A stretch of DNA of 64,000 bases from Marispirochaeta sp. (GCA_963676835.2 CAXXFF010000002.1:1472001-1536000), one strand, 5' to 3'; positions 6,455 through 51,039 are shown, numbered from the stretch's first letter. Notes: generated from the letters alone by a model not told the origin. Program-made: numbers and translations.

Positions 6455-6589
6455 CTTTTCAATGTAAACCCTAAACAGCGGTTTTGGAAAGAAAAAGATA
6501 GTATTGACCACGTAAATGACAGCAGCGTTGCCGTATCCGGTTTGCAGGGGTATATTGAACGCTCAGTCGAAATCTAAGGAACCAATTGT

Positions 6590-30400: not shown

Positions 30401-30455
30401 GCTGCGCCCCCTCTGTCTTATATTAAGGATACTTCTCTCTTTCATGCTGCGCAAT

Positions 30456-30627: not shown

Positions 30628-30800
30628 GATTTTAAAAGGTTCTGCGGGAACACGATAAAGTTAAGCTGTCACGTGCAGTTGAACTGATTTTTCCTATTCT
30701 TTTTTTCAGGTTAAACCCAAAAAGAGTAGCTTTATCTGTATTTACAGATTGGCTATTCAGATCAGTTCTCTACTGTATGGAACTGTTAAAGGGGTGTCGT

Positions 30801-32162
30801 ATGATCGTAAAAAACGGTCTTGTCGCTTTCTCCGGGGAAGATGAGTTTCTCCAGAAAGATCTCCGCCTGGAAAACGGGAAGATTGCAGAAATCGGCCGGG
30901 ATCTCACCGGGCCCGATATTATTGACGCTTCAGGTATGCATGTTCTCCCCGGAGGCATCGATCCTCATGTTCACTTTTACGATCCCGGATATACAGAAAA
31001 GGAAGATTTTCTCCACGGTACCGCCGCTGCAGCTTCCGGCGGAATTACCACAATTATTGATATGCCCTGCACCTCGGTTCCGCCGGTTACCGATGCAGCA
31101 AGTCTAAAAAACAAACTCGAAATTGTGCAGCCCAAGGCTCACATTGACTTTGCCTTTTTCGGTGGAGTATCACGGCAGCTTTTTGATTCCGGATACGAAG
31201 CAGCCATGGCTTCCATCAGCCGTGATGTCATGGGCTATAAGGTATACTCAGTCTCCGGTATGGAAGATGTCTGGGGGGCCCTGGATCATTTCCGTTTCCG
31301 TAAAGTACTTGAGACTGCCAGAGATTTAGGCGTTATTATTCTTCTCCACGCTGAAGATGCGGAGTATGTGGACAATGCTTCTGAGTATTATAAGAAGGAA
31401 GGAACCTCTGCCCGTCAATGGTACGATGCCCGGCCCGAACTTGCTGAAGTTCTTGCGGTTTCCAGTGCAGCCCGGATTCTTAAGGAAACCGGCGGGAACC
31501 TGCATATCGTACATATCGGTTCCGCGGAAGCGGCGGCAATGCTGAACACCTTTCGTCCCGGAGATAAAGAGGCTGTGCTTACCGGGGAAACCTGCCCCCA
31601 GTATCTTGCTTTTAATCTTGATGATTTTCTGGCTCAGGGAGCGGCTCTGAAAATATCTCCTCCCATAAAACCCGATGGTAACCAGCGGCAGCTGCACGCA
31701 TTTCTGAAAGACGGCACGCTCTCCTTTGTTACCTCCGATCATGCTCCGGGAACAAAAGAAGAGAAGGCTCCCGGTGACATCTGGTGCAATTCCGCCGGCA
31801 TCGCAGGCACGGGGACCATTCTTCCCTATCTCTACTCAGAGCTTTTTACTGCAGGGGAACTGCGGCTTTCCCGCTTTCTGGAGATAATCAGCGAGGGAGC
31901 CGCAAAGCGGTACCGTTTTTTTGACCGCAAGGGATCAATCGAAATCGGCAAGGATGCTGATCTTGTCATGATCGATCCGAATAAGAACTGGACAGTACAG
32001 GGAGAAGATTTTCTTTCCAAAGGAAAAATTACTCCCTTTGAAGGCACCGTTTTCCGGGGCAGGGTGGAAAAGACCCTGGTTCGGGGAAAGGTTGTCTATG
32101 ACCGCAGTAAGAACAGTGCTTTACATCAGGGCTGGGGCAGCTTTATCCGGCCCGCGAACTGA
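30801..32162 (+). CDS. Cyclic amidohydrolase, allantoinase/dihydroorotase-like
   Basis: PGGIDPHVH, TAAAASGGITTIIDMP, HAED, HIVH, ETCPQYL, SDHAP; start ATG 30801. Confidence 0.88.
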   Translation: MIVKNGLVAFSGEDEFLQKDLRLENGKIAEIGRDLTGPDIIDASGMHVLPGGIDPHVHFYDPGYTEKEDFLHGTAAAASGGITTIIDMPCTSVPPVTDAASLKNKLEIVQPKAHIDFAFFGGVSRQLFDSGYEAAMASISRDVMGYKVYSVSGMEDVWGALDHFRFRKVLETARDLGVIILLHAEDAEYVDNASEYYKKEGTSARQWYDARPELAEVLAVSSAARILKETGGNLHIVHIGSAEAAAMLNTFRPGDKEAVLTGETCPQYLAFNLDDFLAQGAALKISPPIKPDGNQRQLHAFLKDGTLSFVTSDHAPGTKEEKAPGDIWCNSAGIAGTGTILPYLYSELFTAGELRLSRFLEIISEGAAKRYRFFDRKGSIEIGKDADLVMIDPNKNWTVQGEDFLSKGKITPFEGTVFRGRVEKTLVRGKVVYDRSKNSALHQGWGSFIRPAN

Positions 32163-32177
32163 ATATAAGGAGATTTT

Positions 32178-35100: not shown

Positions 35101-35321
35101 ATTTTCGTAACAGTACCAACCCCGGCTGGCTCTGGATAGGTGAAGATCTGCAGGTCCGCTTTGACGGCGAGGAAGAGAAGCTCAGTCTTGAACAGGCTGA
35201 AAAGGAAGCTTCTGCAGATACCGACCGGGGAAGATTCTTCTCACTTTTTACTATTCTGAAAAGCTCAAGGCCCCATCTGTTCGGGCCGGTTGAGCCTGCT
35301 GTACCGGGAGTTCCAAGATGA
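32178..35321 (+). CDS. ygfK: YgfK-family Fe-S flavoprotein oxidoreductase
   Basis: GPAAGPHTQ, SRFIELKTVQ, TLSTMHGCPP, GAGPAG FAD/NAD motifs, C-terminal 4Fe-4S CxxCxxC clusters. Confidence 0.93.
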   Translation: MGDKMRLIPFAELLERIFEEYRTSRSIFDIPESSWYRKTGDRKIQIFGESCATALGPAAGPHTQLAGNIFSSYLTGSRFIELKTVQILDSLEIEKPCIDAADEGYNTEWSTELALEEAWREYARAWVLLHLADYLFDLNGSFKGRSFIFNMSVGYDMAGIKTEPMQRYIARMKDSSGEPLLAEWIQEVRDLVPGLIAGTSLEAKAEGLAGFTVPGEIFRSVTLSTMHGCPPDEIEAICAYMLTEQKLDTYVKLNPTLLGFDTVKEILSGLGYGYVELNRESFSHDLQYDRALSILNSLRDLAQKEGRQFGVKLTNTLANRNIRGVLPGDEMYLSGRALFPLSITLAARLSEEFDGTLPISYSGGITAANAEAVFKTGIRPVTLATDMLKPGGYMRQGQIADLLDEMTDADWKRGAIDVQALSSLAVASKKDRTLHKDFRGTDEVYNPGELPLTDCYVAPCVTACAINQHIPEYIRLVGEGRYGEALECIYERNALPSITGNICDHQCQLVCTRLDYEGCLNIREIKKIAVEKGSEEFRRRWIRPEVKHKERIAVIGAGPAGLSAAYFLAREGFSVTVLEREADAGGVVRYVVPWFRISREAIDRDIDFIRDHGVEFRFGVDEKIDIPSLEAEGFSYIVLGLGTYRTRKLPIEGDNRKVYPSLSFLTQFNRDASKLDMGRRVVVIGAGDTAMDCARSALRCRGVEEVSIVYRRAFEQMPASREEYEYAQEDQVGFRWLRNPERFDSDGTLTLRVMELGEPDSSGRRRPVPTEKTESLAVDSIVYAIGDDPDAETLKSAGLEPDPSGMVETAEGGETGLKGVFLIGDSRTGASTIVNCISEGRRAADVICRKADSEWERREMIPFMDPAERQEDIRVKKGSLSQQPDPRSSYEVPEFAAREKSRCLECDFICNKCVDVCPNRANITVATEDHPLFADPFQIVHVDAYCNECGNCGHFCPWEGRPYMDKPTVFSTEEDFRNSTNPGWLWIGEDLQVRFDGEEEKLSLEQAEKEASADTDRGRFFSLFTILKSSRPHLFGPVEPAVPGVPR

Positions 35322-36643
35322 GACTGTTAAAGAATGCCCTGCTGGTGGAGTTTGATCCTCCCCGTATCCGTGAAGGTGAAGATGTGCTGGTTGATGGTGA
35401 CCGGATTGTTAAGGTCGGGCCATCGCTTTCTGAAGACGGGGTTGAAAAAACCGTCGACTGTACCGGCAAGCTGCTGTTTCCGGGGATTGTCTGCAGCCAC
35501 AACCATTTCTATTCCGGCCTTTCCAGGGGCATTATGGCGGATATCGGGCCCACCCCGGATTTCGTCTCTGTCCTGAAGCAGCTCTGGTGGCGTCTCGACC
35601 GGGGCATAGATGAGCCCATCCTTAAAGCATCGGGGATGATCTGTTCTCTTGATGCCATCAGAAACGGAACCACTGCGGTTATCGATCATCATGCCAGTCC
35701 TGATTTTATCTCCGGTTCCCTGTCGGTGCTGAAACGCGCCTTTGAAGAGACAGGCCTGAGGGGAGCAACCTGCTACGAGGTGACTGACAGGCACGGACCT
35801 GATGCAATGCTTGAAGGGATAGAAGAAAACCGCCGCTTTGCTGAACAGATTGATGAAGAAAAAAAAGCAGGAACATGGTCGGGGCTTACAGAGGCTCATG
35901 TCGGTGGTCATGCTCCCTGTACGCTCCCCGATGAGGGGCTGAAAAGGATTGCCGATGTCTGCAGTTCCAGCGGCCGGGGTTTTCATTGCCATGTGGCAGA
36001 GGACCGCTGGGATGTTTCCCATTCACATATAAATTACAGCAAAGATATTGCCTTTCGGCTTGATGATTTCGGACTGCTGACGGATAAGACCCTGCTTGTA
36101 CACGGGGTGTTTCTGAATGATCAGGAAGTTGATTTGATTAACGAAAAAGGAAGCTTTCTTGTTCACAACAGCCGGTCAAATATGAATAACGGTGTGGGCT
36201 ATAACAGCCGCCTGCCGCTGTATAAGAATCTCGCCCTTGGTACCGACGGTATTGGATCGGATATGATCAGCGAGATTCAGACAGCTTATTTCAAGCATAA
36301 GGATGCCGGCGGTGCCTGGTGGCCTGGAGATTTTCTTTCCGCCCTGGCAGCGGGAAACCGGATACTGGAACAGGTCTACCGCAGGCCCTTCGGCCGGCTG
36401 GAGTCCGGCTATGCTGCCGATCTTGTGATTGCGGATTATCAGGCCCCCACACCGCTTGCCCCGGAAAACCTTGCAGGACACATGGTCTTCGGCATGGGAT
36501 CTGGCATGGTGGAATCGGTCATTATCGGAGGCCGCTTTGTCATGGAGAACCGGAAATTTCCCATGTATGTAAGCGGTATTTATGAAGACGCCCGTATTCA
36601 GGCTTCACGGCTTTGGGAACGGATGAACTCAATAGAAGCGTAA
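35318..36643 (+). CDS. ssnA: SsnA-family amidohydrolase
   Basis: PGIVCSHNHFYSGLSRG, LWWRLDR, IDHHAS, HVAED, SNMNNGVG; follows ygfK as in E. coli. Confidence 0.92.
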   Translation: MRLLKNALLVEFDPPRIREGEDVLVDGDRIVKVGPSLSEDGVEKTVDCTGKLLFPGIVCSHNHFYSGLSRGIMADIGPTPDFVSVLKQLWWRLDRGIDEPILKASGMICSLDAIRNGTTAVIDHHASPDFISGSLSVLKRAFEETGLRGATCYEVTDRHGPDAMLEGIEENRRFAEQIDEEKKAGTWSGLTEAHVGGHAPCTLPDEGLKRIADVCSSSGRGFHCHVAEDRWDVSHSHINYSKDIAFRLDDFGLLTDKTLLVHGVFLNDQEVDLINEKGSFLVHNSRSNMNNGVGYNSRLPLYKNLALGTDGIGSDMISEIQTAYFKHKDAGGAWWPGDFLSALAAGNRILEQVYRRPFGRLESGYAADLVIADYQAPTPLAPENLAGHMVFGMGSGMVESVIIGGRFVMENRKFPMYVSGIYEDARIQASRLWERMNSIEA

Positions 36644-36700
36644 ATATAGAAGCCTGAGGGCTTATAAAAAGAGAAAATACAAGAGAAACAGGAGTTGGAT

Positions 36701-37924
36701 ATGAAGAACGCGGAAAAGATACTTAAACTTGCAGAAACTTACAGAGATGATACAGCAGAGCTCTTGAGCGAACTGATTAAGATAAAATCTTACAGCTCTC
36801 AGGAAGAGGATATCTGCCTGCGACTGCGGGAAATCTGCGGCACCCTCGGCTTCGATGAAGTCAGGATAGACGGTCTGGGAAGTGTACTTGCCAGAATAGG
36901 TTCCGGCCCCCGGGTAATAGCCTTTGACGCTCATATTGATACCGTAGAAGTCGGTAACCCTTCTATCTGGGAAAAGGATCCTTTCTCCGGAGAGATTTCC
37001 GACGGCTATGTTTACGGCCGGGGTGCTTCCGATCAGAAAGGCGGAGCTGCTGCCATGCTTACCGCAGGGCGGATACTCAAGGAACTTGCCTACGATGGTG
37101 ATTTCAGTGTCTGGTTCAGTTTTACCGTTATGGAAGAGGACTGCGACGGTATGTGCTGGAAATACCTCATTGAAGAGGAAAACTTCAAGCCTGAGTTCAT
37201 TGTCTCCACCGAACCCACAAGCTGCCGTATCTACCGGGGACACCGGGGCCGGATGGAAATGGTTGCCCGGATGAAGGGGGTTTCAGCCCATGGTTCTGCT
37301 CCGGAACGGGGAGTAAGTGCTGCTTACAAAGCAAGCCGGGTTGCTCTTGCAATAGAGGAGCTGAATGAGTCGCTTAAACCGGATGACGACAATTTCCTGG
37401 GCAAGGGAACTATTGTTGTGAGCCAGATGGATGTCCGCGGACCCTCCCAGTGTGCGGTACCCGATCAGGCAATGCTGTATATGGACCGCCGCCTTACCTG
37501 GGGAGAGGACAAGGAACTCGCTATCCGTCAGGTGAAAGAGGCGGCTGCAAAGGCTATTGGCGAAGACGAATCAGCCATAGAGGTTACCATGCCGGATTAT
37601 GCCAAGCGGGGCTGGAAGGATATGGATTATTCCCAGGAGCTTTATTTTCCCACCTGGAAAATCGATGAAGATCATCCCCTGGTGCAGGGGGCCCGTAAGG
37701 CATACAAGAAACTCTGGAGTAAAGAGCCGGTCATCGATAAATGGACCTTCAGTACAAACCTGGTTGCTTCCACGGGGCGTCATAAAATTCCCGCCATCGG
37801 CTTTGGCCCGGGGGATGAAAATCAGGCCCATGCTCCCAATGAGAGAACCCGGGTGGCGGATCTTGAGGTCTGCTCTGCATTCTACGCCATGCTGCCCTTT
37901 ATGCTGGAGGAGCAGAAGGGCTGA
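36701..37924 (+). CDS. ygeY: YgeY-family M20 hydrolase
   Basis: FDAHIDTV, GRGASDQKGG, EEDCDG, RGHRGRME, DKWTFSTN, AHAPNE; SD AGGAG. Confidence 0.93.
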   Translation: MKNAEKILKLAETYRDDTAELLSELIKIKSYSSQEEDICLRLREICGTLGFDEVRIDGLGSVLARIGSGPRVIAFDAHIDTVEVGNPSIWEKDPFSGEISDGYVYGRGASDQKGGAAAMLTAGRILKELAYDGDFSVWFSFTVMEEDCDGMCWKYLIEEENFKPEFIVSTEPTSCRIYRGHRGRMEMVARMKGVSAHGSAPERGVSAAYKASRVALAIEELNESLKPDDDNFLGKGTIVVSQMDVRGPSQCAVPDQAMLYMDRRLTWGEDKELAIRQVKEAAAKAIGEDESAIEVTMPDYAKRGWKDMDYSQELYFPTWKIDEDHPLVQGARKAYKKLWSKEPVIDKWTFSTNLVASTGRHKIPAIGFGPGDENQAHAPNERTRVADLEVCSAFYAMLPFMLEEQKG

Positions 37925-39084
37925 TGATTACCTTCGGATGCCGCTGCAGTACCTGCGGCCGGGAATACAGCTTCAGTCACGAAACAATGCTCTGTCCGGT
38001 ATGTTCTGCTGAGCAGGAAGCGGACCAGCCCTTAAAGGGAATACTGGAGTTTTCACTTTCCGGCTCCCCGGCTAAGGATTGGGATCCTCTGGATCTGCTG
38101 CCGGTGGAGCGGCGCTGGTTTCCTCCGGCCCCGGTGGGAAACACTCCTCTTTGGGAACCCGCCGGACTGCGGAAGGAGACAGGATTCAATAACCTGTTTA
38201 TCAAGGATGACAGTCTTAACCCCACGGGGTCTCTGAAAGACCGGGCCAGTTACTTGGTGGCAGCCTATGCCCGCAGTGTCGGGATCAAGCGTATTGTGCT
38301 TGCATCCACCGGCAATGCGGGATCATCCATGGCAGGAATCGGCGCAGCTTCCGGCCTGGATATCCGCCTTTTTCTTCCTGCGGCAGCACCTCCTGCCAAG
38401 CTGATACAGGCCCTGCAGTATGGTGCTGATCTGGTCAAGGTCGACGGAACTTACGATAAGGCCTACGACCTCGCTCTTGAAGAAGCCGGTATGGACGGCG
38501 TCATGAGCCGCAATACCGGTCATAACCCCCTGACAATCGAGGGGAAAAAGAGTGTATCCCTTGAAATATTCAGGCAGCTCGGGAACCGGGTGCCGGATTA
38601 TCTGTTTGTCTCCGCCGGTGACGGGGTAATCCTCTCCGGTGTCTACCGGGGATTTGAAGATCTGATGAGCCTGGGCCTTTCCGACAGGATGCCAACCGTG
38701 GTGGCTGTGCAGGCAGAGGGCTCCTCGGCAATTCACCGGGCGCTTAAATCCGGGGGCTTCCGGAAACCCGTACCGTCAACCACCCTGGCGGATTCCATCT
38801 CGGTGGATGTACCCCGGGGCGGCCTCTTTGCTCTGGAAAGGCTTCAGCGGCATGACGGCATTACCGTTACTGTTGCGGATGATGAAATACTTGATGCTCA
38901 GGGGCTGCTGGCTTCCGGAGCAGGACTCTTTGCAGAACCCGCTGCAGCAGCCGCCTGGGCGGGATTTCAGCAGCTTATGAGTGAGATAGATATTGATGCA
39001 AGTGTTGTTGTTCTGGTTACCGGCAGCGGTCTCAAGGATATTGACGGAGCCCGGAAGGGGCTGGAACAGCGGGGGAGAATATAG
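37924..39084 (+). CDS. Threonine-synthase-like PLP enzyme (fold type II)
   Basis: N-terminal CSTC/CPVC Zn ribbon, VGNTPL, NPTGSLKDRAS (PLP Lys), ASTGNAG, TGSGLKD. Confidence 0.85.
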   Translation: MITFGCRCSTCGREYSFSHETMLCPVCSAEQEADQPLKGILEFSLSGSPAKDWDPLDLLPVERRWFPPAPVGNTPLWEPAGLRKETGFNNLFIKDDSLNPTGSLKDRASYLVAAYARSVGIKRIVLASTGNAGSSMAGIGAASGLDIRLFLPAAAPPAKLIQALQYGADLVKVDGTYDKAYDLALEEAGMDGVMSRNTGHNPLTIEGKKSVSLEIFRQLGNRVPDYLFVSAGDGVILSGVYRGFEDLMSLGLSDRMPTVVAVQAEGSSAIHRALKSGGFRKPVPSTTLADSISVDVPRGGLFALERLQRHDGITVTVADDEILDAQGLLASGAGLFAEPAAAAAWAGFQQLMSEIDIDASVVVLVTGSGLKDIDGARKGLEQRGRI

Positions 39085-41231
39085 TGCAGAATGTTCATCC
39101 TATAAGTAAGTCCATACCGCGGCCGGACGGGAAGGAGAAGGCCGGCGGGGCGGCTGCCTATATCGCAGATTTTCCTCATCAGGATTTTCTCACCGCCCGG
39201 TTTTACCGCTCTCCTTTTACCAGAGGTACTATTACTGCTATCCATCTTCCGGAACTGCCGGATGGTTATTTTGCGGTGGATTACCGGGATGTTCCCGGGG
39301 AAAACTACATAGCCCTGATAAAAAACGACTGGCCCGCCTTCGCGGAGACCGAAATCCGCTACAAGGGTCAGATTATCCTGCTCCTGGCGGGACCGGATCC
39401 GGAGGTGGTGGATAAGCTTTTGTCGGGAATCTCCGTGGAGTACACCGAAAAAGAACCGGCGGTTACCCCCGATGACGGCCTTGCCTGCCGCGGCGGTGCC
39501 ATGCATGGTGACAATAACATCTATGCCGACCTTAATCTTGTTAAAGGCGATCCCGACGAGGCATTCCGGCAGGCAAGCCGCATTGTTGAAGGTACATACG
39601 CCACGGGCTTTCAGGAACAGCTCTATATGGAGCCCCAGGGGCTCATGGCCTGGACCGAGAAAAACGGAAAGAAAGTTGTTGTCCAGGGCACCATGCAGTG
39701 TCCCTATTATGTTAAACACTCCGCCGAAGTTGTCCTTGGCGACGGATTTGATGTCCGGGTCATTCAGACCACCACCGGAGGCGGCTTCGGAGGCAAGGAG
39801 GATTACCCCGAGATTATGGCGGGACCTCTGGTTACTGCGGCAGTTAAAATAGGAAAACCCTTAAGGATGATCTTTGACCGCACTGAGGATCTAGCATACA
39901 CCTCCAAGCGGCATCCTTCCCGCACAAGGGTTCGAACCGCCCATGATGAGTCCGGACGGATTACCGCCCTGGATTTTGACATTATCATTGACGGCGGGGC
40001 TTACGAGAGCTACTCCCTTATTGTCCTTCAGCGGGCGGTGTTCACCTCCAACGGCGTCTACAATTTTCCCAGCGCCCGGGTACGGGGCAGGGCCGTGGCT
40101 ACATCCACGGTTCCTTCAGGTGCATTCCGGGGCTTCGGCGCACCCCAGGCTCTGCATGCCCTGGAGATGCACATGACCAAAGCTTCCCGGGAGTTTGGCG
40201 AAGATACGCTGAAATTCCGGCTTCCCTACCTGCTGAAAAAAGGTGACCCTACCATAACCGGGGGAACTATCCGGGAAGAGGTGATCCTTGATCAACTTAT
40301 TGAAAAGGCCATGAATGTTTCGGATTTCCGCCGCAAACGGAAGCAGTACGCGGATGTTCCCGGGAAAGGAATAGGCCTTGCTCTGATGAATCACGGCTGC
40401 GGCTTTACCGGTGACGGCGAGCAGAAGATTATCAAGGCGAAGGTGAAGATCCGCAAGAATGCTGATGATACGGTGGATCTGCTCCTGGCCAATATCGACA
40501 TGGGCCAGGGGCCGAGGACAACCATGCGCAAGGTTGCGTCTGCCGTCCTCGGTATACCCACAGACAGAATTACCTACGATAACCCCGATACCGATCTGGT
40601 TCCCAACTCGGGGCCGACTGTAGCCAGCCGAACCATGATGGTGGTGGGCTACCTTCTTAAGGAAGCGGCGGAGAAGCTGAAAGCAATCTGGCAGCCCGGG
40701 AAGCTTCAGGTGACTGAAGCAGACTACACCATGCCACCTGGAATGGAGTGGGACCAGGAAAAACTTTCCGGTGACGCCTATGCCGCCTACGGCTGGGGGG
40801 TGAATATCGTGGAAGTCGAAACAGATCCGGTAACCTGGGAAGTTAAAGTTAACGGCGTCTGGGCTGTCTACGACGTGGGTGTTCCCATCGATGACCTGGT
40901 GGTGCAGGGACAGATCCAGGGCGGCATGAGCCAGGCCCTGGGCTATGCCAGCTGCGAAAAGCTGGAAGTAGGCGCCGATGGTGCCTTTCGGCAGGCAAGC
41001 ATGGCGGACTATATCGTGCCCACCAGTCTCGATTTTCCCCGTACCAGTGCCTATACGCTGAACAACCCTTACGAATATGGACCCTTTGGAGCCAAAGGGA
41101 TGGGTGAGATGGTCCATGATGCCGGTCACGCCGCCTACTGTGCCGCGGTGGAGCAGGCAACGGGACATGAGTGCCCGGAAATCCCCCTCACCCCGGAAAA
41201 ACTCGCGGAGATTATGCAGCATGAAAATTGA
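39084..41231 (+). CDS. Xanthine dehydrogenase-family molybdopterin-binding (large) subunit
   Basis: QEQLYMEP, GGGFGGK, GAFRGFGAPQ, DMGQG, SGPTVASR, GAKGMGE. Confidence 0.93.
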   Translation: MQNVHPISKSIPRPDGKEKAGGAAAYIADFPHQDFLTARFYRSPFTRGTITAIHLPELPDGYFAVDYRDVPGENYIALIKNDWPAFAETEIRYKGQIILLLAGPDPEVVDKLLSGISVEYTEKEPAVTPDDGLACRGGAMHGDNNIYADLNLVKGDPDEAFRQASRIVEGTYATGFQEQLYMEPQGLMAWTEKNGKKVVVQGTMQCPYYVKHSAEVVLGDGFDVRVIQTTTGGGFGGKEDYPEIMAGPLVTAAVKIGKPLRMIFDRTEDLAYTSKRHPSRTRVRTAHDESGRITALDFDIIIDGGAYESYSLIVLQRAVFTSNGVYNFPSARVRGRAVATSTVPSGAFRGFGAPQALHALEMHMTKASREFGEDTLKFRLPYLLKKGDPTITGGTIREEVILDQLIEKAMNVSDFRRKRKQYADVPGKGIGLALMNHGCGFTGDGEQKIIKAKVKIRKNADDTVDLLLANIDMGQGPRTTMRKVASAVLGIPTDRITYDNPDTDLVPNSGPTVASRTMMVVGYLLKEAAEKLKAIWQPGKLQVTEADYTMPPGMEWDQEKLSGDAYAAYGWGVNIVEVETDPVTWEVKVNGVWAVYDVGVPIDDLVVQGQIQGGMSQALGYASCEKLEVGADGAFRQASMADYIVPTSLDFPRTSAYTLNNPYEYGPFGAKGMGEMVHDAGHAAYCAAVEQATGHECPEIPLTPEKLAEIMQHEN

Positions 41232-41700
41232 TTTTACCCTGAACGGAACCCCGGTCTCTCTGGAGTCAAGCCCGGTAAAGCGCCTCCTTGATGTTCTGCG
41301 GGATGACTTTGACATGAAAGGTACCAAAGAGGGCTGCGGCGAAGGGGAGTGCGGAGCCTGCAGTATCTTTATCGACGGACGTCTTGCCAACAGCTGTCTT
41401 ATTCCGGCAGCCCAGGCGGAAGGTGCAGAGATTGTTACCATAGACGGTGTTCGCGATACTGAAGCAGGCATACTGATTACCGAAGCCTATGCGGAAGCCC
41501 ATGCGGTGCAGTGCGGGTTCTGTACCCCCGGTATGGTAATGGCCTCCATTGCCCTTTTAAAGGTAAATCCCGATCCCGACGAGCAGGCAGTGCGGGAGGG
41601 CATCTCCGGCAATATCTGCCGCTGCACCGGCTACGACATGATTATTGATGCCGTTCAGTTAGCGGCAAAGCGTGCAAAAGAGCGGGGTCTTGCATGGTGA
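41221..41700 (+). CDS. Xdh/CoxS-type 2Fe-2S subunit
   Basis: GTKEGCGEGECGAC, QCGFCTPG, CRCTGY; true start ATG 41221. Confidence 0.93.
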   Translation: MKIDFTLNGTPVSLESSPVKRLLDVLRDDFDMKGTKEGCGEGECGACSIFIDGRLANSCLIPAAQAEGAEIVTIDGVRDTEAGILITEAYAEAHAVQCGFCTPGMVMASIALLKVNPDPDEQAVREGISGNICRCTGYDMIIDAVQLAAKRAKERGLAW

Positions 41701-42569
41701 ACAGCAAGGTAGATGCATTACGCCCCGGATCCCTGGCTGAGGCGATTGATTTTCGCACCCGTACCGGTGCGCTGCCCTTTGCGGGGGGCACGGACCTGAT
41801 GGTTCGCCGCAGGAGATACACCGGCACAGCAGGCCCTGACTTCAGCGGCCCCGTACTTTTTCTCGATGGAGTTCCGGAGCTTAAACAGGTGCAGATCAAA
41901 GGAGGCATTCTTGAGGCAGGTGCTGGTGTAACCCTCAGTGATCTGCTCGCCCGTAAAGAGCTGCCTCTACTGCTTCGCCGGGGTATCGAGCTTATCGCCG
42001 CTCCGGGACTGCGCAACCGGGCAACTCTTGCAGGAAACATCTGTAATGCTTCTCCTGCGGCTGATTCCCTTCCTTCCCTGTATGTACACGGGGCGGAAGT
42101 AGTTCTTACCGGCCCTTCCGGTGAAAGGACTCTCCTTCTCTCTGATTTCATACGCGGGCCGGGTAAAACAGTACTCAAGGATGATGAACTGCTTACTGCA
42201 GTGAAGATTCCCCTGCTGGATAAGGGGCGCATCTACTACCGTAAGGTGGGCACCCGCAAGGCCAATGCCCTTTCAAAGCTGTCCGCTGCAGGATACGTCA
42301 GAACCGTGGATGGTCTTATTGAAGATTTCCGCTTCGCCCTGGGCGCCGTTGCTCCCACAGTCGTTCGTCTGAATGAGGTGGAGCAGGCGGTGCGCGGTAA
42401 AGAGCTATCAGAACTCGATGCAGATACGCTGCTTGAACTTGCTGCACCTGCGGTTTGTCCCATAGATGACCAGCGCTCCACCGCTGACTATCGTCGGCAG
42501 GTGGCATTTAACTGTCTAAAAGAATTTCTTGAACAGATACAGAATAATAACTTTCCGGAGGAAACATGA
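41694..42569 (+). CDS. Xdh/CoxM-type FAD-binding subunit
   Basis: AGGTDL, RNRATLAGNICNASPAAD, PIDDQRST. Confidence 0.92.
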   Translation: MVNSKVDALRPGSLAEAIDFRTRTGALPFAGGTDLMVRRRRYTGTAGPDFSGPVLFLDGVPELKQVQIKGGILEAGAGVTLSDLLARKELPLLLRRGIELIAAPGLRNRATLAGNICNASPAADSLPSLYVHGAEVVLTGPSGERTLLLSDFIRGPGKTVLKDDELLTAVKIPLLDKGRIYYRKVGTRKANALSKLSAAGYVRTVDGLIEDFRFALGAVAPTVVRLNEVEQAVRGKELSELDADTLLELAAPAVCPIDDQRSTADYRRQVAFNCLKEFLEQIQNNNFPEET

Positions 42570-44029
42570 TTGACCTGACCCTGAATCCAAAACAGATAGA
42601 GAAAAACGCAAAACTCTGCGCAAAAAAAGGCATACTGCTGCCCACGTTCAAACAGATGGCCGACTCTTCCCTGATACCGGAAGAGATTAAATCAGAACTG
42701 AAAAAGATAGACCTGAACGAGGTCCATTCCCGCAACCTCTACCGGGTAAGCTGGGAAAATGAGCCCACCGAAAACGGCGGCACCTATGGCGGAGTCAACT
42801 GGATGGAGCTGCCTTCAGCTCTCACCGGTGTTAAAGCCCGGATTGTCGGTCTTGTGGGCAAGTGGTTTCCCACGGGCGCCCACAAAGTAGGAGCAGCCTA
42901 CAGCTGCCTGGCCCCGACCCTGGTTACCGGACAGTTTGACCCGGAGAGCAACATGGCTGTCTGGCCTTCAACCGGAAACTACTGCCGCGGTGGTGCCTAT
43001 ATCTCCCGGCTGTTAGGCTGTAAATCCATAGCCATACTTCCGGAAGAGATGTCGAAAGAGCGCTTCAAGTGGCTGGAAACGATGGCTGACGAGACCATTG
43101 CCACCCCGGGCTGCGAGAGTAACGTAAAGGAGATCTTCGACAAGTGCCATGAACTGGATGCAGAAAGGGGAGAGCATATCTTTATTTTCAACCAGTTTGC
43201 CGAGTTCGGTAATCATCTCTGGCATCACGAAGTAACAGGACGGGCAATGGAGAAGGTGCTGAATCAGGTAATGAAACCCGGCCAGACACTGGCGGGAACC
43301 TGTATCTCTTCCGGCTCCGCCGGGACCACCGCTTCTGGAGAGTACCTGAAAACCCGCTTCCCCGGTGCAAAGCTTGCAGTCAGTGAAGCGGTGCAGTGTC
43401 CCACCCTTCTTTCCAACGGCTTCGGCGGCCACCGCATCGAAGGTATTGGGGACAAGCATGTTCCCTGGATTCACAATGTAAAGAACACCGATATGATTGT
43501 TGCGGTAGACGATGAAGCCACCATGCGGCTCCTGCGTCTTTTCAACGAGAAGGTTGGCCGGGAATATCTGGTACAGAAAGGTCTTGATCCTGCTCTTGTG
43601 TCGGTTCTGGATACTATGGGTATCAGCGGTATCTGCAATATGCTCACCGCTGTCAAGTTTGCCAAATACTACGAACTGGATGAAAACGATGTGGTAATGA
43701 CGGTCTTTACCGACTCCGAAGCCATGTATACCTCCCGCCTTCAGGAGCTTACCGAAGAGCGGGGTCCATACTCCCGGGAAAACGCCGTAGCTGACTACGA
43801 GCTGCTGATGCAGACCGGAATCGATTCACTGCTGGAGCTGCGCTATGAGGACCGCAAACGGGTTCACAACCTGAAATACTACACCTGGGTTGAGCAGCAG
43901 GGTAAAACCTACGAGGAAATCAATGCCCAGTGGTACGACCGAAACTACTGGAAGAGTATTTACGAAACCCGGGACGAACTGGACAAGCTGATTGAAGAGT
44001 TTAATGAGAAGGTGAAGGGGTATATGTGA
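42566..44029 (+). CDS. Uncharacterised PLP-dependent enzyme (fold type II, cysteine-synthase-like)
   Basis: GKWFPTGAHKVGA (PLP Lys), WPSTGNYCRGG, GSAGT, HRIEGIGDKH. Confidence 0.85.
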   Translation: MIDLTLNPKQIEKNAKLCAKKGILLPTFKQMADSSLIPEEIKSELKKIDLNEVHSRNLYRVSWENEPTENGGTYGGVNWMELPSALTGVKARIVGLVGKWFPTGAHKVGAAYSCLAPTLVTGQFDPESNMAVWPSTGNYCRGGAYISRLLGCKSIAILPEEMSKERFKWLETMADETIATPGCESNVKEIFDKCHELDAERGEHIFIFNQFAEFGNHLWHHEVTGRAMEKVLNQVMKPGQTLAGTCISSGSAGTTASGEYLKTRFPGAKLAVSEAVQCPTLLSNGFGGHRIEGIGDKHVPWIHNVKNTDMIVAVDDEATMRLLRLFNEKVGREYLVQKGLDPALVSVLDTMGISGICNMLTAVKFAKYYELDENDVVMTVFTDSEAMYTSRLQELTEERGPYSRENAVADYELLMQTGIDSLLELRYEDRKRVHNLKYYTWVEQQGKTYEEINAQWYDRNYWKSIYETRDELDKLIEEFNEKVKGYM

Positions 44030-44309: not shown

Positions 44310-45674
44310 ATGCTGTTACTGAAAAACTGTTTTCATCTTGTTCAGCGGGCGGACGAACCCGGGCTTTCCGGAGTGGATCTCCTTATAGACGGAAACCGGA
44401 TTGCTGAAGTTGGGAAAAACCTGAAGGTTTCCGCGGGAGATTGCCGGGTAATAGATGCCTCAAAGCATCTGGTTATTCCCGGGCTTGTAAACACTCATCA
44501 TCATTTTTATCAGACCCTTACCCGCAACCTGCCGGCAGTTCAGAATGCAAAGCTCTTTAACTGGCTGGTCTACCTTTACGAGGTGTGGAAATATGTGGAT
44601 CAGGATGCCATTTACTGGTCTACAGCCCTTGCGACGGCAGAACTTTTAAAGACCGGCTGCACTCTTACCTCGGATCATCATTATCTGTATCCCAACAATG
44701 TTTCTGCCGACATTATGGCTACCCAGTTTGAGGCTGCCGGAGTTACAGGAATCCGTTTTTCACCTACACGAGGCTCCATGAGTCTCTCCAAAAAAGACGG
44801 CGGTCTGCCGCCGGATACGGTTGTGCAGACGGAAGATATAATTATGCAGGATTCGGAGAGGGTTATTAGAGAGTTTCATAACCCGGAGCCTTTGAGCATG
44901 CAGAAGATTGCCCTGGCTCCCTGCAGCCCTTTTTCTGACTCCGAACAGCTTTTAAAGGATACTGCTGCTCTTGCCCGGCAGCATGGTGTATTGCTGCACA
45001 CCCATCTTGCAGAAACGGAAGACGAAAACGCCTACTGCGAACGGGTATTCAAGCGCCGGCCTCTGAAGGTTATGGAAGATTGTGATTTTGTCGGCCCCGA
45101 TGTCTGGTTTGCCCACGGGGTGTTTTTCAATGATGATGAACTGAAGGTGCTGAAAGAGACTGGCTGTTCTATCGGTCACTGTCCTACCTCCAATATGCGT
45201 CTGGGCTCAGGTATCTGTCGGGTTCGGGATATGCTGGATACTGGTATAAATGTAAGCCTTGCAGTGGACGGCAGTGCCTCCAACGACTCTTCAGACATGG
45301 TTGGTGAACTGCGGAATGCCCTGCTGCTGCAACGGGTCGCCAGAGGATCGGATGCTCTGACTGCAGCGGAAGTTTTGAGGATGGGTACGGAGAACGGGGC
45401 GAAGCTGTTGAACTTTCCCGAGTGCGGCACCCTGTATCCCGGACAGGCGGCAGACATTGCCATGTTTGATATGCAGCGCATGGAGTATGCAGGGGCCTTG
45501 AGCGACCCCATGGCGGCGCTGATTTTTTCCGGCTACAATCATGGTACGGACTATACCATAGTCAACGGCAAGGTGGTGGTTGATAAGGGACGGCTAACCG
45601 GAATCACCGAAGAGGAGATCCGGGATAAGGCAAATGCTGCGGCGGAAAGGCTGTACCGTAAGGCGGATATTTGA
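44310..45674 (+). CDS. 8-oxoguanine deaminase/AtzB-like amidohydrolase
   Basis: PGLVNTHHHFYQTLTR, RGSMSL, LAPCSPFS, HTHLAET, HCPTSNMRLGSG, VDGSASND. Confidence 0.88.
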   Translation: MLLLKNCFHLVQRADEPGLSGVDLLIDGNRIAEVGKNLKVSAGDCRVIDASKHLVIPGLVNTHHHFYQTLTRNLPAVQNAKLFNWLVYLYEVWKYVDQDAIYWSTALATAELLKTGCTLTSDHHYLYPNNVSADIMATQFEAAGVTGIRFSPTRGSMSLSKKDGGLPPDTVVQTEDIIMQDSERVIREFHNPEPLSMQKIALAPCSPFSDSEQLLKDTAALARQHGVLLHTHLAETEDENAYCERVFKRRPLKVMEDCDFVGPDVWFAHGVFFNDDELKVLKETGCSIGHCPTSNMRLGSGICRVRDMLDTGINVSLAVDGSASNDSSDMVGELRNALLLQRVARGSDALTAAEVLRMGTENGAKLLNFPECGTLYPGQAADIAMFDMQRMEYAGALSDPMAALIFSGYNHGTDYTIVNGKVVVDKGRLTGITEEEIRDKANAAAERLYRKADI

Positions 45675-46004: not shown

Positions 46005-46820
46005 ATGATAATGGAGTTTAAACAGGCTTCATCGGTGGATGAAGCAGTCGGCCTGAAGAAGGACGGCTATATATTTCTGGCCGGGGGTACCCAGGTAAAC
46101 AGCACCCCCTTCAAGATGCGACACGAGAGTCATAGACGGGAGAAGGTTGTCTCTCTTGCCGGCCTCGGACTGGAAGGGATCAGCAGTGAGGGCGGCGATG
46201 TTATTGTAGGGGCTACGACAACCCTGCAGGATATTGCCGACAGCAGTGAAGTTCCTCAGGCTTTAAAAGATGCAGCAGGTTTTATCCCTACCCGTAGTGT
46301 GCGGAACATTGCCACCATCGGCGGTAATGTGGGAGCAAAGAGGCCGGACTCCTATGTGATTCCCGCTCTTATTGCCCTTGGAGCCTTGGCTGAAACAGTA
46401 AATGGCAGTGTCAGTGTGGAAGAGTATGTCTCCACGGATGCGGAAGATCTGATCTTAGGCTTCCGGATACCGGCGGTCGATTCGGGAAAAAAGAGTGTCT
46501 GCCGTGCGGTTAAGGAATCACGTTCTCATGTAGCCCTGCCGGTGGTGAGTGCTGCTGTAAGTGCAGCTTCCGAAGGCGGAAAAGTATCAGAAATTATTAT
46601 TGCCGCCGGCTGTGTTGCTGCAAAAACAATCCGGCTTTCTGCAGTCGAGGAGGGCATCCTTTCCGGTGCTGTATCTCTGGAAGGAGAGTTCCTTGAAACC
46701 GCTATTGCCGGAGCCCTGCATCCGGCAGAAGACATTCTCGGCAGCAGAGCTTTTAAAACCTACCTGAACTCGGTGCTTATTGCGGACCTTGTACGGGGCT
46801 GCATCCGTGAGGTGGTGTAA
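46005..46820 (+). CDS. ygfM: YgfM-like FAD-binding subunit
   Basis: FLAGGTQVN, RSVRNIATIGGN; directly upstream of xdhD as in E. coli. Confidence 0.75.
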   Translation: MIMEFKQASSVDEAVGLKKDGYIFLAGGTQVNSTPFKMRHESHRREKVVSLAGLGLEGISSEGGDVIVGATTTLQDIADSSEVPQALKDAAGFIPTRSVRNIATIGGNVGAKRPDSYVIPALIALGALAETVNGSVSVEEYVSTDAEDLILGFRIPAVDSGKKSVCRAVKESRSHVALPVVSAAVSAASEGGKVSEIIIAAGCVAAKTIRLSAVEEGILSGAVSLEGEFLETAIAGALHPAEDILGSRAFKTYLNSVLIADLVRGCIREVV

Positions 46821-49690
46821 TGAAGATCAGTTTTACCCTTAACGGAAAGCCCGTTAGTTTTGAAGGCGCTCCCGGCGAGTCTGCCCAGAAGTTTCTGCAG
46901 CGAAACGGTATTGCCTCGGTGCGGAACTCCGACGACGGCTTCGGTTTTGCAGGATCCGACAGTATCCTGCTGGATGGACGTATTGTTGGTTCAAATATCA
47001 TAGTGGCGCCCCAGCTGGAAGGCCGGGATGTTAAAACCATTGAGTTTTACGGTACCAGCCGCACTTTAAGTGTTGTGCAGCAGGCTATGCTAGATTCCGG
47101 CTGTGTTCAGTCGGGCTATAACTCTCCTGCAGCAGCCATGATGATCCACGAGCTTCTGGACCGCAGTTCTGAGCCTTCAAAGGATGAGGTAAAAGACGCG
47201 CTGTCCGGACTGTTCAACCGGGCTACGGGATACGAGCAGTTTTTTCAGGCCGTTGAACTTGCCTCGGCCAGAATGAAAGACCCGGCCTATACAAAGGTTC
47301 AGGCTCCATCCTTCGGCCCCAATTACGATATTGTTGGTAAACCGGAACCGAAAAAGGACTCCGCCCGTATGGTGGCAGGAGACCGGGTTTTTGTAGAAGA
47401 CCGGGTTGAGAAGGGTAGCTGTATCCTCAAGGTTCTCCGAAGTCCCCATGCCCATGCCTGGATTAAAAGTATCGATACATCTGCAGCGGAAGCTGTTCCG
47501 GGAGTGGTGGGTATTTTTACGTATAAGGATGCACCGCAGAAGGTCTACACCCAGGCGGGGCAGAACTTTCCCGAACCCTCTCCCTACGACAGAATGGTTC
47601 TTTCCCGCAAGGTCCGTCATATAGGAGACAGGGTTGCAGCAGTGGTTGCAGAGACCCTGGAAGCGGCGGAAAAGGCCCGTGATCTGATAAAGGTCCAGTA
47701 TGAAGTCCTTCCAACGGTTCTGGACTGGGATGATGCCTACGATGACAGCCTGCCGAGAATCCATAACGGACCAATCGAGTATGTTGAAGGTGCTCCTGAT
47801 GACATTGCACAGCTGAATGCTGATGTGAACAGTGAGGAGGAGCCGGTAATCTATCAATTCCCTATAGGGGGAAATCCGCGGAAGAACATTGCTTCCTCCA
47901 TCTCCGGCGGTATCGGCGATCTTGAGAAGGGCTTTGCCGAGGCCGACGCGGTAATTGAGCGCACCTATACCACCACTCAGATACAGTGTACTCCCCTTGA
48001 GATGCATGTCTGCTATGCGAAGATGGAAGGTGACAGGCTTGTGGTGCATGCATCCACCCAGGTGCCCTACCATGTACGGAGGCTTATCTCCACTCTGCTT
48101 GATCTCCCGGAAAACAAGGTTCGCATTATCAAGGAGCGGGTCGGCGGTGGCTACGGCTCCAAGCAGGATATGACCATTGAAGATCTGGTAGCCTTCTGCG
48201 CCTACAAGACGGGACGAGCGGTTTTTCAGCACTACAGCCGTGAGGAGGAGTTTATTGCCAACTCGTCCCGAAAGCCCATGCGCTGTACAGTGAAGCTTGG
48301 AGCAAAGAAAGACGGCACCATGACTGCCATGTATGTAAAGGTGGAGTCAAACCAGGGAGCCTACGGAGCCCACTGCCTCACGGTTCCCATGAACGGTGTC
48401 TCCAAGAGTCTGCCCCTCTTTCTCTGCGACAATGCGGGATTTGATGTTGTGGCTCTCTATTCCAACCGGCCGCCCACCGGGGCCTATCAGGGCTACGGAG
48501 CGCCCAAGGTGAACTATGCGGTGCAGTTAGCGGTGAAGGAGCTTGCCGCGGAGATTGGTGTTGATCACCTGGAGGTTGTTGAGAAGAACCGGGTTAAAGA
48601 AGGTTCAATGCTTGAGATTCTCCGCTGTCTCGGCGAAGGCCGGGAAGGAGCTCCTGCACCGGCAACCACCTGCGGTCTGGGGCCGGCCCTTGAACAGGGA
48701 GCTGAGATGATTAACTGGTCTCAACGGGAAGAGAGCGGCGACCCGGATATAAAAATCGGTAAAGGGCTGGCCACAGTTCAGCAGGGATCTGGGCTTCCAG
48801 GCCTTGATTCGGCCAATGCCATTATAAAGATGCTTGGAGACGGAACCTTTCTGGTACAGTCCGGCGGTGCCGACCTGGGTACCGGTCTTGATCTGGTAAG
48901 TGCAAAGATAACCGCCGAGGTTTTAAAGTGTGATATGGAGATTGTTACCGTCCAGTCCGGCGATACCGATGCTGCCCCCTTTGATACCGGCGCCTACGCC
49001 TCAAGCGGTACCTACTTTTCCGGCGGGGCCACCCGCAATGCCGCTTTAAAAATGGCAGAGCAGATTAAAACCGAAGCTGCAGCAATTCTCGGCGAGAAGC
49101 CTGAAGATATTGAACTGCTGCGGCCGGGAATTGCCCGGGGAAAAACCGGGGAGCTTACCTACCGGAAACTTGCCTGGCATAGTCAGACAGGATCTGGCTG
49201 CGGTCAGCTGATATCGTCGGCAAGCTTTACCACCGACAAGTTCAGCTTTCCCTATGGCGCCCACTTCTGCCAGGTGGCTGTGAATACCCGCACTGGCAAG
49301 GTAAAGGTACAGAAGTATTATGCCCTGGAAGACTGCGGTACTCCCATAAATCCCGAGTACGCCATGGGACAGGTTTACGGTGCGGTGGTGAAATCCATGG
49401 GACATGCTCTGTATGAGGAGATGATCTTCGACAAGGAGGGCCGCTGCCTGAATACCGACCTGCGCAGCTACGGTGTGCCCATGATCGGGGATATTCCTGA
49501 GGATTTTAAAACAGTGCTGGTAGAGACGGATGATCCCTTCGGCCCATTCGGAGCCAAATCGGTTTCGGAGATCAGTGTAAACGGTGCGGCTCCGGCCATT
49601 GCCGCGGCAATTTATGATGCCGTCGGCGTATGGATGCGGGACTGGCCCTTCAGCCCCGAGAAGATTCTCAAGGCCCTGAAGAAAATATAA
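46820..49690 (+). CDS. xdhD: XdhD-like fused (degenerate Fe-S + molybdopterin) oxidoreductase
   Basis: SVRNSDDGFGFAGSD and VQSGYN (Cys-less Fe-S domain typical of XdhD), GGGYGSKQ, GAYQGYG, GAKSVSE. Confidence 0.9.
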   Translation: MKISFTLNGKPVSFEGAPGESAQKFLQRNGIASVRNSDDGFGFAGSDSILLDGRIVGSNIIVAPQLEGRDVKTIEFYGTSRTLSVVQQAMLDSGCVQSGYNSPAAAMMIHELLDRSSEPSKDEVKDALSGLFNRATGYEQFFQAVELASARMKDPAYTKVQAPSFGPNYDIVGKPEPKKDSARMVAGDRVFVEDRVEKGSCILKVLRSPHAHAWIKSIDTSAAEAVPGVVGIFTYKDAPQKVYTQAGQNFPEPSPYDRMVLSRKVRHIGDRVAAVVAETLEAAEKARDLIKVQYEVLPTVLDWDDAYDDSLPRIHNGPIEYVEGAPDDIAQLNADVNSEEEPVIYQFPIGGNPRKNIASSISGGIGDLEKGFAEADAVIERTYTTTQIQCTPLEMHVCYAKMEGDRLVVHASTQVPYHVRRLISTLLDLPENKVRIIKERVGGGYGSKQDMTIEDLVAFCAYKTGRAVFQHYSREEEFIANSSRKPMRCTVKLGAKKDGTMTAMYVKVESNQGAYGAHCLTVPMNGVSKSLPLFLCDNAGFDVVALYSNRPPTGAYQGYGAPKVNYAVQLAVKELAAEIGVDHLEVVEKNRVKEGSMLEILRCLGEGREGAPAPATTCGLGPALEQGAEMINWSQREESGDPDIKIGKGLATVQQGSGLPGLDSANAIIKMLGDGTFLVQSGGADLGTGLDLVSAKITAEVLKCDMEIVTVQSGDTDAAPFDTGAYASSGTYFSGGATRNAALKMAEQIKTEAAAILGEKPEDIELLRPGIARGKTGELTYRKLAWHSQTGSGCGQLISSASFTTDKFSFPYGAHFCQVAVNTRTGKVKVQKYYALEDCGTPINPEYAMGQVYGAVVKSMGHALYEEMIFDKEGRCLNTDLRSYGVPMIGDIPEDFKTVLVETDDPFGPFGAKSVSEISVNGAAPAIAAAIYDAVGVWMRDWPFSPEKILKALKKI

Positions 49691-49842: not shown

Positions 49843-51039
49843 GTGAAACAGACGGTTTTAAAGCAGAAGCTGGCGGCGCTTGAGAAGCTTGCCACGCAGA
49901 AGATGGTGAACAATGATTTTCTGTTGACCTGGGAAAAAAGTGATGACGAGATTGCGGCGACCTTTCTGGTGGCCGAGGCGCTGAAGCTTATGCGGGAAGA
50001 GAATATTTCCACCCGGGCCTATGATTCGGGGCTCGGAATCAGCCTGTTCCGGGATAATTCCACCCGGACCCGCTTCAGTTATGCATCGGCCTGTAATCTG
50101 CTGGGCCTGGAAGTGCAGGACCTGGATGAGGGAAAGAGCCAGATTGCCCACGGAGAAACTGTCCGGGAGACGGCGGTAATGATCAGCTTTATGGCAGACG
50201 TTATCGGTATTCGGGACGATATGTACATCGGCAAGGGGAACACCTATATGCGTCAGGTGGCAAAGGCGGTGCAGGAGGGCTTTGACGACGGTGTGCTCGA
50301 GCAGCGTCCCAGCCTGGTGAATCTGCAGTGTGATATTGATCACCCCACCCAGAGCATGGCGGATACCCTGCATCTGATTAACCATTTCGGCGGCGTTGAG
50401 AATCTTAAAGGCAAGAAGGTCGCCATGACCTGGGCCTACAGCCCCTCCTACGGCAAGCCCCTGTCGGTACCCCAGGGGGTGATCGGTCTGATGACCCGCT
50501 TCGGTATGGATGTGGTGCTGGCTCATCCGGAAGGCTACGAGGTTATGCCCGAGGTTATGGATGTGGCGGCGAAGAATGCCGAGGCTTCCGGCGGCGGATT
50601 CAGCCTCACTAGCGATATGGGGGCGGCTTTTGATGGAGCGGATATTGTCTATCCCAAAAGCTGGGCGCCTTTTGCGGCCATGGAGAAGCGGACAGATCTT
50701 TACGGCAATGGTGATCATGACGGGATTAAGGCTCTTGAGAAGGAGCTCCTGGCACAGAATGCCGGACATAAAGACTGGGAGTGTACCGAGGATCTGATGA
50801 AGAAGACCAAAGACGGCAAAGGTCTTTACCTGCACTGTCTGCCCGCGGATATAAGCGGCGTCAGCTGTAAAGAGGGTGAGGTTGCGGCGTCGGTGTTTGA
50901 CCGCTACCGGGTGCCTCTGTATGCCCAGGCGGGATTCAAGCCTTATGTAATTGCCGCGATGATTTTCTTAAGCAAATTCGGTGATCCCGCGGGCAAGTTG
51001 GGCGAGATGCTGAAGGCCGGACGGAAGCGGATTTTTTAG
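49843..51039 (+). CDS. ygeW: Knotted carbamoyltransferase YgeW
   Basis: FRDNSTRTRFS, GIRDDMYIGKG, NLQCDIDHPTQ, WAYSPSYGKPLSVPQG, HCLPAD. Confidence 0.95.
   Translation: MKQTVLKQKLAALEKLATQKMVNNDFLLTWEKSDDEIAATFLVAEALKLMREENISTRAYDSGLGISLFRDNSTRTRFSYASACNLLGLEVQDLDEGKSQIAHGETVRETAVMISFMADVIGIRDDMYIGKGNTYMRQVAKAVQEGFDDGVLEQRPSLVNLQCDIDHPTQSMADTLHLINHFGGVENLKGKKVAMTWAYSPSYGKPLSVPQGVIGLMTRFGMDVVLAHPEGYEVMPEVMDVAAKNAEASGGGFSLTSDMGAAFDGADIVYPKSWAPFAAMEKRTDLYGNGDHDGIKALEKELLAQNAGHKDWECTEDLMKKTKDGKGLYLHCLPADISGVSCKEGEVAASVFDRYRVPLYAQAGFKPYVIAAMIFLSKFGDPAGKLGEMLKAGRKRIF

Follow-up and report, generated by a model that had tools for sequence, protein, structure and literature searches.

The window considered here is a 64,000-nucleotide stretch of DNA from Marispirochaeta sp. 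(GCA_963676835.2, CAXXFF010000002.1:1472001-1536000), and its gene of interest (42566-44029, plus strand) encodes an uncharacterised pyridoxal 5'-phosphate (PLP) enzyme of 487 amino acids (aa). The gene is the final one of nine closely packed plus-strand genes (30777-44029) spaced by 15, -4, 51, -1, -1, -11, -7 and -4 bases, and its translational coupling, proposed in the first-pass annotation of the window, was borne out: the ATG shares 4 bases with the stop of the xdhB-like gene upstream and is preceded by a GGAGG ribosome site. The operon is assigned to the 2,8-dioxopurine (anaerobic urate) pathway, which work of 2025 elucidated in E. coli and clostridia and which influences urate levels in the host. 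It encodes the dioxopurine reductase YgfK (32178-35321; TIGR03315 1328 against a cut-off of 835; 51% identity to the E. coli protein), the aminohydrolase SsnA (35318-36643; TIGR03314 537 against 455.5; 52%) and the ureido-hydrolase YgeY (36695-37924; TIGR03526 476 bits against 321.5; 47%), and further plus-strand genes downstream encode XdhD (46820-49690; TIGR03313 1303 against 1102; 54%) and the YgeW carbamoyltransferase (49843-51039; TIGR03316 746 against 500; 67%). All five are over their curated cut-offs, at 47-67% identity to the E. coli proteins. YgfM (46005-46820, plus strand; 36% to E. coli) is the only member of the set xdhD-ygfM, ygfK, ssnA, ygeW and ygeY to fall under its cut-off (160 against 241.5 bits), and YgfM and XdhD together (46005-49690) are assigned as the urate-to-dioxopurine reductase. 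The start of a second PLP enzyme gene, which encodes a threonine synthase (ThrC)-like protein of 386 aa and is called the partner below (37924-39084, plus strand; PF00291 234 bits), shares 1 base with the ygeY stop. The two PLP genes are separated by the three subunits of a xanthine-dehydrogenase-family molybdenum (Mo) hydroxylase (39084-42569, plus strand; Mo subunit 39084-41231, iron-sulfur subunit about 41221-41700, FAD subunit 41694-42569).

Published work gives 2,3-diaminopropionate (DAP) as the product of YgeY, and in the available text of PMC12507026 and bioRxiv 2025.04.24.650524 the last step of the pathway, from DAP to pyruvate, is carried out by YgeX (DpaL; TIGR01747). The window holds no DpaL-like open reading frame, as first annotated, and no true dpaL was found elsewhere in this 97.3% complete genome, in which TIGR01747 scores 22 bits at best (cut-off 274), at a place other than the 487-aa locus, and in which tblastn gave no match for E. 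coli YgeX at 1e-5, nor for any of three DpaL queries. Seven PALP (PF00291) genes are present, two in the operon and five elsewhere, and the latter pass the cut-offs for cysK, two types of thrC, trpB and a TrpB-like gene. The first-pass annotation saw the right gap, yet half of what fills it: it put forward the 487-aa protein as the replacement for DpaL and overlooked the ThrC-like enzyme, also a PLP enzyme of fold type II, which the same operon encodes and which makes a second candidate.

That the 487-aa protein is itself a fold-type II PLP enzyme was confirmed. Both motifs named for it are in the reading frame (GKWFPTGAHK at residues 98-107 and WPSTGNYCRGG at residues 133-143), K107 is kept in 205 of 211 aligned rows, and PF00291 scores 47.4 bits against a threshold of 35, with no other, more specific family cut-off passed. 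The structure model (predicted local distance difference test, pLDDT, 90) has CysK/CBS-type entries as its top fold matches (Z 31-34), and sequence and structure searches returned CysK, CBS and their relatives at 18-28% identity. The top NCBIfam match is cysK (TIGR01139), at 88.8 bits under the cut-off of 350.95, and extensions of about 80 aa at the N-terminus and about 90 aa at the C-terminus lie outside the CysK core. With E. coli YgeX the protein has in common a single 46-aa stretch (28%); TIGR01747 gave no match to it and is absent from its NCBIfam hits, and no DpaL structure is among the fold matches listed. In a quick IQ-TREE run of 29 rows, made without the Fn1055 sequence discussed below and with the careful search unfinished, the family forms one clade (100) joined to CysK/CysM (SH-aLRT 96), with DpaL in a separate clade (99). 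The 487-aa protein is accordingly placed by lineage as a sister group of CysK, in the CysK/CBS beta-replacement line and not in that of DpaL. A housekeeping role as cysteine synthase was considered and rejected, as the protein scores below the cut-off and a true cysK (432 bits) is found elsewhere in the genome; the gene for the 487-aa protein also lies outside any cysteine operon.

All 8000 of 8000 scored candidates in the homologue search matched, giving a family of at least 8000 members, with named ones in Spirochaetota, Anaerolineae, Cloacimonadota, Planctomycetota, Deltaproteobacteria and Marinimicrobia and in the eukaryote Aduncisulcus paluster. Source annotations call them cysteine synthase or PLP-dependent enzyme, and ESM Atlas returned unnamed PALP clusters only, most frequently from Spirochaetota, Bacillota and Pseudomonadota, which offered no clue to function. 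The homologues recorded for A. paluster, an anaerobe, are full-length (P0123 and P0286; GKT33050.1 and GKT33049.1), and the Asp-Lys-His motif described below is intact in P0123.

The active site combines conserved and altered elements. Near-invariant residues of CysK type are K107, S135-T136-G137-N138, Q210 (230 of 238 rows), G250-T254 and S354 (204 of 213 rows), which include the lineage hallmarks of a Gln after the asparagine loop, a GIG loop and a GISxG Ser. We take K107 to be the PLP lysine, S135-N138 the substrate loop and G250-T254 the phosphate loop. After the GIG motif, the Ala of CysK gives way to Asp-Lys-His. When the PDB was searched with residues 270-325, Fn1055 of F. nucleatum came top of 25 (E 0.006), and D296 falls on the position at which entry 5b53 (Asp) and the D232N entry 5b55 (Asn) differ; the same position is Ala in the CysK entries shown and Tyr in yeast CBS. 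Of the 231 homologues aligned, 221 have D296, as do 100 of the 109 rows that come from distant representatives, with many fragments among them. In Fn1055, Asp232 presumably activates water. According to the available text of PMC12940168 and PMC9865163, this cysteine (hydroxyl) lyase / serine synthase works by beta-replacement, cysteine and water giving serine and H2S, and Asp232 is a key residue in it. Fn1055 also has the CysK fold (Z 33.2, root mean square deviation 2.7, 313 residues aligned); however, its Z score is tied with those of CysK entries and the overall identity is about 20%, so D296 is a shared feature and orthology is not established. Fn1055 differs further in having 336 aa, against 487 aa with long terminal extensions for the present protein, whose gene sits in a purine cluster. 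The Asp120 that the available text of PMC4000059 names as catalytic in DpaL, in a T-D-G-N loop, aligns with Thr136 here, and the DpaL form of the loop is absent. Plain beta-elimination, the chemistry originally ascribed to the protein, is less well matched by its lineage and active-site loop than beta-replacement, to which both point.

The partner has a ThrC fold with an N-terminal CxxC..C motif, and its best matches are short threonine synthases (30-35% identity, TM 0.74-0.76). It resembles these in fold and sequence but remains under the ThrC cut-offs (TIGR00260 145 against 167; PRK08197 211 against 303), and relative to two solved ThrC its NSVNPxR and GNAGN loops are replaced. The family has invariant residues of its own, namely R196, N201 and G232-D233-G234. 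The residues of the two replaced loops presumably bind the substrate phosphate, a role which the literature search did not confirm. The partner is best read as a putative lyase or racemase on a non-phosphorylated substrate. A housekeeping role as threonine synthase was rejected in view of the scores below cut-off and two true thrC genes elsewhere in the genome. A single structure prediction for a heterocomplex of both PLP enzymes scored 0.00 and bears neither way.

Gene neighbourhoods tie the two enzymes to each other and to purine genes. Relatives' loci were taken as the best 80 of at least 587 stretches encoding a relative of the 487-aa protein, many on short contigs; the partner is found in 71 of the 80 (adjacent in 58), a purine-pathway gene in 56 and dpaL in none. 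A further test, based on neither of the two genes, used 80 metagenome loci chosen by ygeY of the dpaL-cluster type, which stand in for Bacillota genomes. Here, 53 loci have dpaL and 7 the 487-aa gene, which is accompanied by the partner in 4 of these; none has both, and 20 have neither, 14 of these being shorter than 10 kb. The 487-aa gene and dpaL exclude each other within clusters, and the routine co-occurrence that would have spoken against the original proposal is not seen (0/80 in both sets of loci). The 487-aa protein belongs to a real, widespread and uncharacterised family of enzymes, the mark of a recently solved pathway in a variant form without DpaL; this part of the replacement claim stands, and the part that assigned the role to this protein alone is not supported, given that 117 of 118 carriers in the genome survey also have the partner.

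This survey covered 251 Spirochaetia genomes, each at least 90% complete. The 487-aa gene is found in 118, the partner in 122 and both in 117; in the lone carrier without a partner (G018), the partner is truncated at a contig end. Of the other markers, ssnA is present in 102 genomes, ygeY in 119 and dpaL in 33; the 487-aa gene accompanies ssnA in 98 genomes and ygeY in 112. The 119 ygeY genomes divide into 81 with the 487-aa gene and no dpaL, 31 with both, none with dpaL alone and 7 with neither. The expected anticorrelation with dpaL therefore fails at genome level, since 31 of the 33 dpaL-positive genomes keep the 487-aa gene and none of the 31 ygeY genomes with dpaL lacks it. Where both are present, dpaL is unlinked: none of 14 dpaL regions examined from the 33 has the 487-aa gene, the partner or ssnA, and 3 have a distant ygeY-like gene. 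The two dpaL genomes without the 487-aa gene are G209, in which the cluster is cut at a contig start, and G159, whose dpaL has distant ygeY- and ssnA-like genes of its own next to it.

A second set, drawn from the phylum of G255 (titled Anaerolineae), comprised 121 genomes, with G281 counted in denominators only. The 487-aa gene occurs in 17, the partner (called above 440 bits, the next score being 377) in 18 and both in 15, often unlinked, which suits enzymes of sequential steps. DpaL is above cut-off in one genome, which also carries the 487-aa gene. Eleven of 25 ygeY matches come with neither dpaL nor the 487-aa gene; of 10 examined among these, 8 have no purine neighbours, 1 has a carbamoyltransferase and 1 is a full cluster with the partner only. 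In both sets, absence from a metagenome-assembled genome is no proof of absence.

Taken together, the need for a PLP step on DAP, the general lack of DpaL in these genomes and the constant company of two PLP enzymes lead us to favour, with some reserve, a two-enzyme module in which the 487-aa protein and its ThrC-like partner would dispose of DAP in a DpaL-free 2,8-dioxopurine pathway. Such a module would take the place of YgeX/DpaL, which it resembles in fold type and in its pathway position by ygeW and ygeY, at the same missing step; it differs in that the 487-aa protein is of another lineage, has Thr for Asp120, travels with a second PLP enzyme and is retained where dpaL sits elsewhere in the genome. 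Two forms of the module can be considered, a serine relay and a division of labour by stereochemistry. The relay, in which the 487-aa enzyme would convert DAP to serine and the partner serine to pyruvate, is put forward tentatively. CysK-lineage enzymes pass through a PLP-aminoacrylate. DAP, as the end product of YgeW and YgeY, would bind PLP at K107 of the 487-aa enzyme, which would expel the 3-amino group as ammonia and leave the PLP-aminoacrylate; D296, acting like Asp232 of Fn1055, would then add water and serine would be released. The ThrC-fold partner would deaminate serine to pyruvate and ammonia, and the net result would equal the DpaL reaction, with serine as a divertible intermediate. 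A different product of this kind would explain why dpaL genomes keep the module. It is conceivable, at a similarly tentative level, that anaerobic purine catabolism has a second, widespread way of ending, through an undescribed DAP hydroxyl-lyase of the CysK lineage (DAP + water to serine + ammonia) coupled to a ThrC-derived deaminase or racemase.

Several points weigh against this module, and some of them against the relay in particular. Every catalytic step in it is inferred, and D296 may have arisen by convergence or may assist departure of the amine in an ordinary elimination. The genomes are related, and the counts are not independent events. The partner occurs without the 487-aa gene in 3 genomes, once in a full cluster (G358/L144). 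G063, G161 and G214 each carry the 487-aa gene twice, the second copy complete and in purine-type surroundings, and the partner once; second copies, at L135, L136 and L247, sit in purine-type clusters that hold no second partner. Two Fe-S serine-dehydratase-family genes are present in the Marispirochaeta genome, and a dedicated serine deaminase is hence not obviously needed. A CysK-type enzyme is expected to take L-substrates. The available text of bioRxiv 2025.04.24.650524 proposes the pathway intermediates as (R), and that of PMC12990295 describes their stereochemistry as still open.

These last points favour the stereochemical form of the module, in which one enzyme would racemise or otherwise handle D-DAP and the other eliminate L-DAP, the two jointly doing what DpaL, by its published description in part available, does on both isomers. 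The (R) intermediates drawn in the preprint and the two serine dehydratases argue for it, as it would account for near-obligate pairing in spite of the latter, and the residue aligned with DpaL Asp120 is Thr in both the 487-aa protein and the partner. We nevertheless regard it as rather doubtful, because no residue is picked out as a second base and because it leaves unexplained both the Fn1055-type Asp and the gene's retention in 31 of 31 ygeY genomes with dpaL. The module could also be replaced altogether by a reading in which DAP ammonia-lyase activity would belong to the ThrC-like enzyme and the 487-aa protein would be a side branch, making cysteine or serine from DAP or albizziin by beta-replacement or releasing sulfide from cysteine for Mo hydroxylase maturation. 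The overlap of the partner gene with the ygeY stop, its descent from the lineage of serine/threonine dehydratases and the G358 cluster with the partner alone would fit, as would an enzyme like the H2S producer Fn1055 at its key site, never lost when dpaL is present, with serA or serC nearby in 6 of 96 loci and a genome without a YqeB/YqeC match. However, the partner is equally kept alongside dpaL (31/33), the 487-aa gene lies by ygeW and ygeY without the partner in L135 and L198, and it tracks ygeY (112/118) better than ssnA (98/118), which makes this reading unlikely.

The proposal as originally framed, in which the 487-aa protein, as a DAP ammonia-lyase not orthologous to DpaL, would by itself turn DAP into pyruvate and 2 ammonia while the partner has some other task, is in our judgement quite improbable. 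It agrees with the locus-level exclusion of dpaL, with the duplications lacking a second partner in G063, G161 and G214, with an Asp next to the beta-carbon that could help ammonia leave, and with a ygeX-like position in two loci: L135 has the order ygeY, 487-aa gene, ygeW, and L198 has hyuA-like, ygeW, 487-aa gene, an unrelated transporter, ygeY and uacT-like, with no partner in the stretch examined of either. It is at odds with the 31 of 33 dpaL genomes that keep the gene, with a partner in 117 of 118 carriers whose role would then be unexplained, and with a CysK/CBS lineage in which likeness to E. coli YgeX is confined to the one short stretch. The first-pass annotation also allowed for action on a ureido-substituted precursor, namely elimination of urea straight from albizziin (3-ureido-alanine), skipping YgeY. 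An O-ureido-L-serine synthase is among the fold matches, CysK-lineage enzymes accept ureido-bearing side chains, and albizziin is a proposed intermediate in the available text of PMC12507026 and PMC12990295. Yet 112 of the 118 carriers retain ygeY, no urease was found in the 97% complete genome, and the other proposed intermediate has, in the available text of bioRxiv 2025.04.24.650524, a blocked alpha-amino group with which a PLP aldimine should be impossible, so this route appears very improbable.

The two-enzyme module, if correct, would bring two enzyme families, and perhaps a reaction not described before, into the pathway and would link purine carbon to serine, with the C3 skeleton routed to serine as well as pyruvate in spirochaetes, Chloroflexota and others. 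Spirochaetota and Chloroflexota are among the ssnA carriers in the available text of PMC12507026, where YgeX is scored as any PF00291 gene within 15 genes (Fig. 3g); under that rule, either PLP protein here would be counted as YgeX. The available text of bioRxiv 2022.12.12.520169 requires dpaL (> 25% identity) among five marker genes. Surveys that require dpaL would hence overlook these organisms and those based on PF00291 neighbours would mislabel them, which would change the count of urate degraders, and the module would bear on the open stereochemistry of the intermediates. In the open literature, no description of the pair of 487-aa and ThrC-like proteins was found, although subscription papers, journal versions of preprints or supplements may mention it; searches there on ygeY, ssnA and threonine synthase found no paper, and searches on ygeX/ygeY, uric acid, Spirochaet and cysteine synthase found only the known pathway papers. 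The text seen of GapMind 2026 (PMC13759103) and of PMC12674515 had no bearing on the matter.

Other features of these neighbourhoods touch on the same subjects. Six of 96 loci (L137-L139, L042, L048 and L053), from two separate spirochaete groups, have serA in the vicinity of the 487-aa gene, and three of them serC as well; serA and serC are not beside the gene in the present window, and the link with serine biosynthesis is a weak hint. At L135 (12254-12997), ygeY, the 487-aa gene and ygeW are divergent from a set of genes for a hydantoin racemase, a HyuA-like enzyme, an M20 hydrolase and a Bmp-type ABC transporter; this set bears on the stereochemistry of pathway intermediates. The second copy of the 487-aa gene at L136 and L248 (G161:C3) is divergent from a cluster of a DHO_dh-family reductase and Amidohydro_3, which recalls the UacX/UacY variant described for C. 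difficile. Loci L077-L089 and L151-L157 (Anaerolineae-titled, phylum of G255) have one or two shorter carbamoyltransferases instead of canonical YgeW, ATCase-like and OTCase/YgeW-like, together with carbamate kinase and ygeY; two carbamoyltransferases would allow phosphorolysis of both ureido groups. In four spirochaete genomes (L128-L131; G121, G066, G087 and G235), ygeY is of the longer, dpaL-cluster type (about 610 against about 480 bits), which suggests replacement by transfer. No ygeY relatives were found in viral contigs. Finally, L020-L023, L046, L056 and L062 are titled Clostridium, Ruminococcus, Bacteroides and others but have the gene order of Sphaerochaetaceae loci, at about 62% identity; these titles are probably wrong and were unused as evidence of range.

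In the window itself, the head of the operon is a cyclic amidohydrolase gene (30777-32162, plus strand), allantoinase- or hydantoinase-like and under all cut-offs. It scores best as an allantoinase (TIGR03178 328 against 358) and, at 27% identity to E. coli HyuA, is the sole hyuA candidate; it is probably a stand-in for HyuA, and hydantoin opening in this operon may proceed via a divergent enzyme too. An adenine deaminase gene (28679-30454, minus strand; TIGR01178 628 against 472.5) is divergent from the operon, and an 8-oxoguanine-deaminase-family amidohydrolase (44310-45674, plus strand; NF006055 576 against 532) follows the 487-aa gene. A promoter scan gave 13 sites against 13.3 expected. 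A gene at 5513-6511 (minus strand), 24 kb upstream, we take, from sequence similarity, to encode a carbamate kinase in the YqeA role; in 11 of 80 loci a homologue of it adjoins the two PLP genes. Together with a further Mo-hydroxylase gene set and a MocA-like gene at 67-2554, it lies 24-30 kb upstream. YqeB and YqeC have no match in the genome, and the selenium-cofactor trait may therefore be absent. Between these genes and the operon, at 15917-23768, lies a gene for what we take to be a 1836-aa alpha-2-macroglobulin-like protein, followed by one presumably encoding a PbpC-like protein, a known pair that is unconnected with the 487-aa gene.

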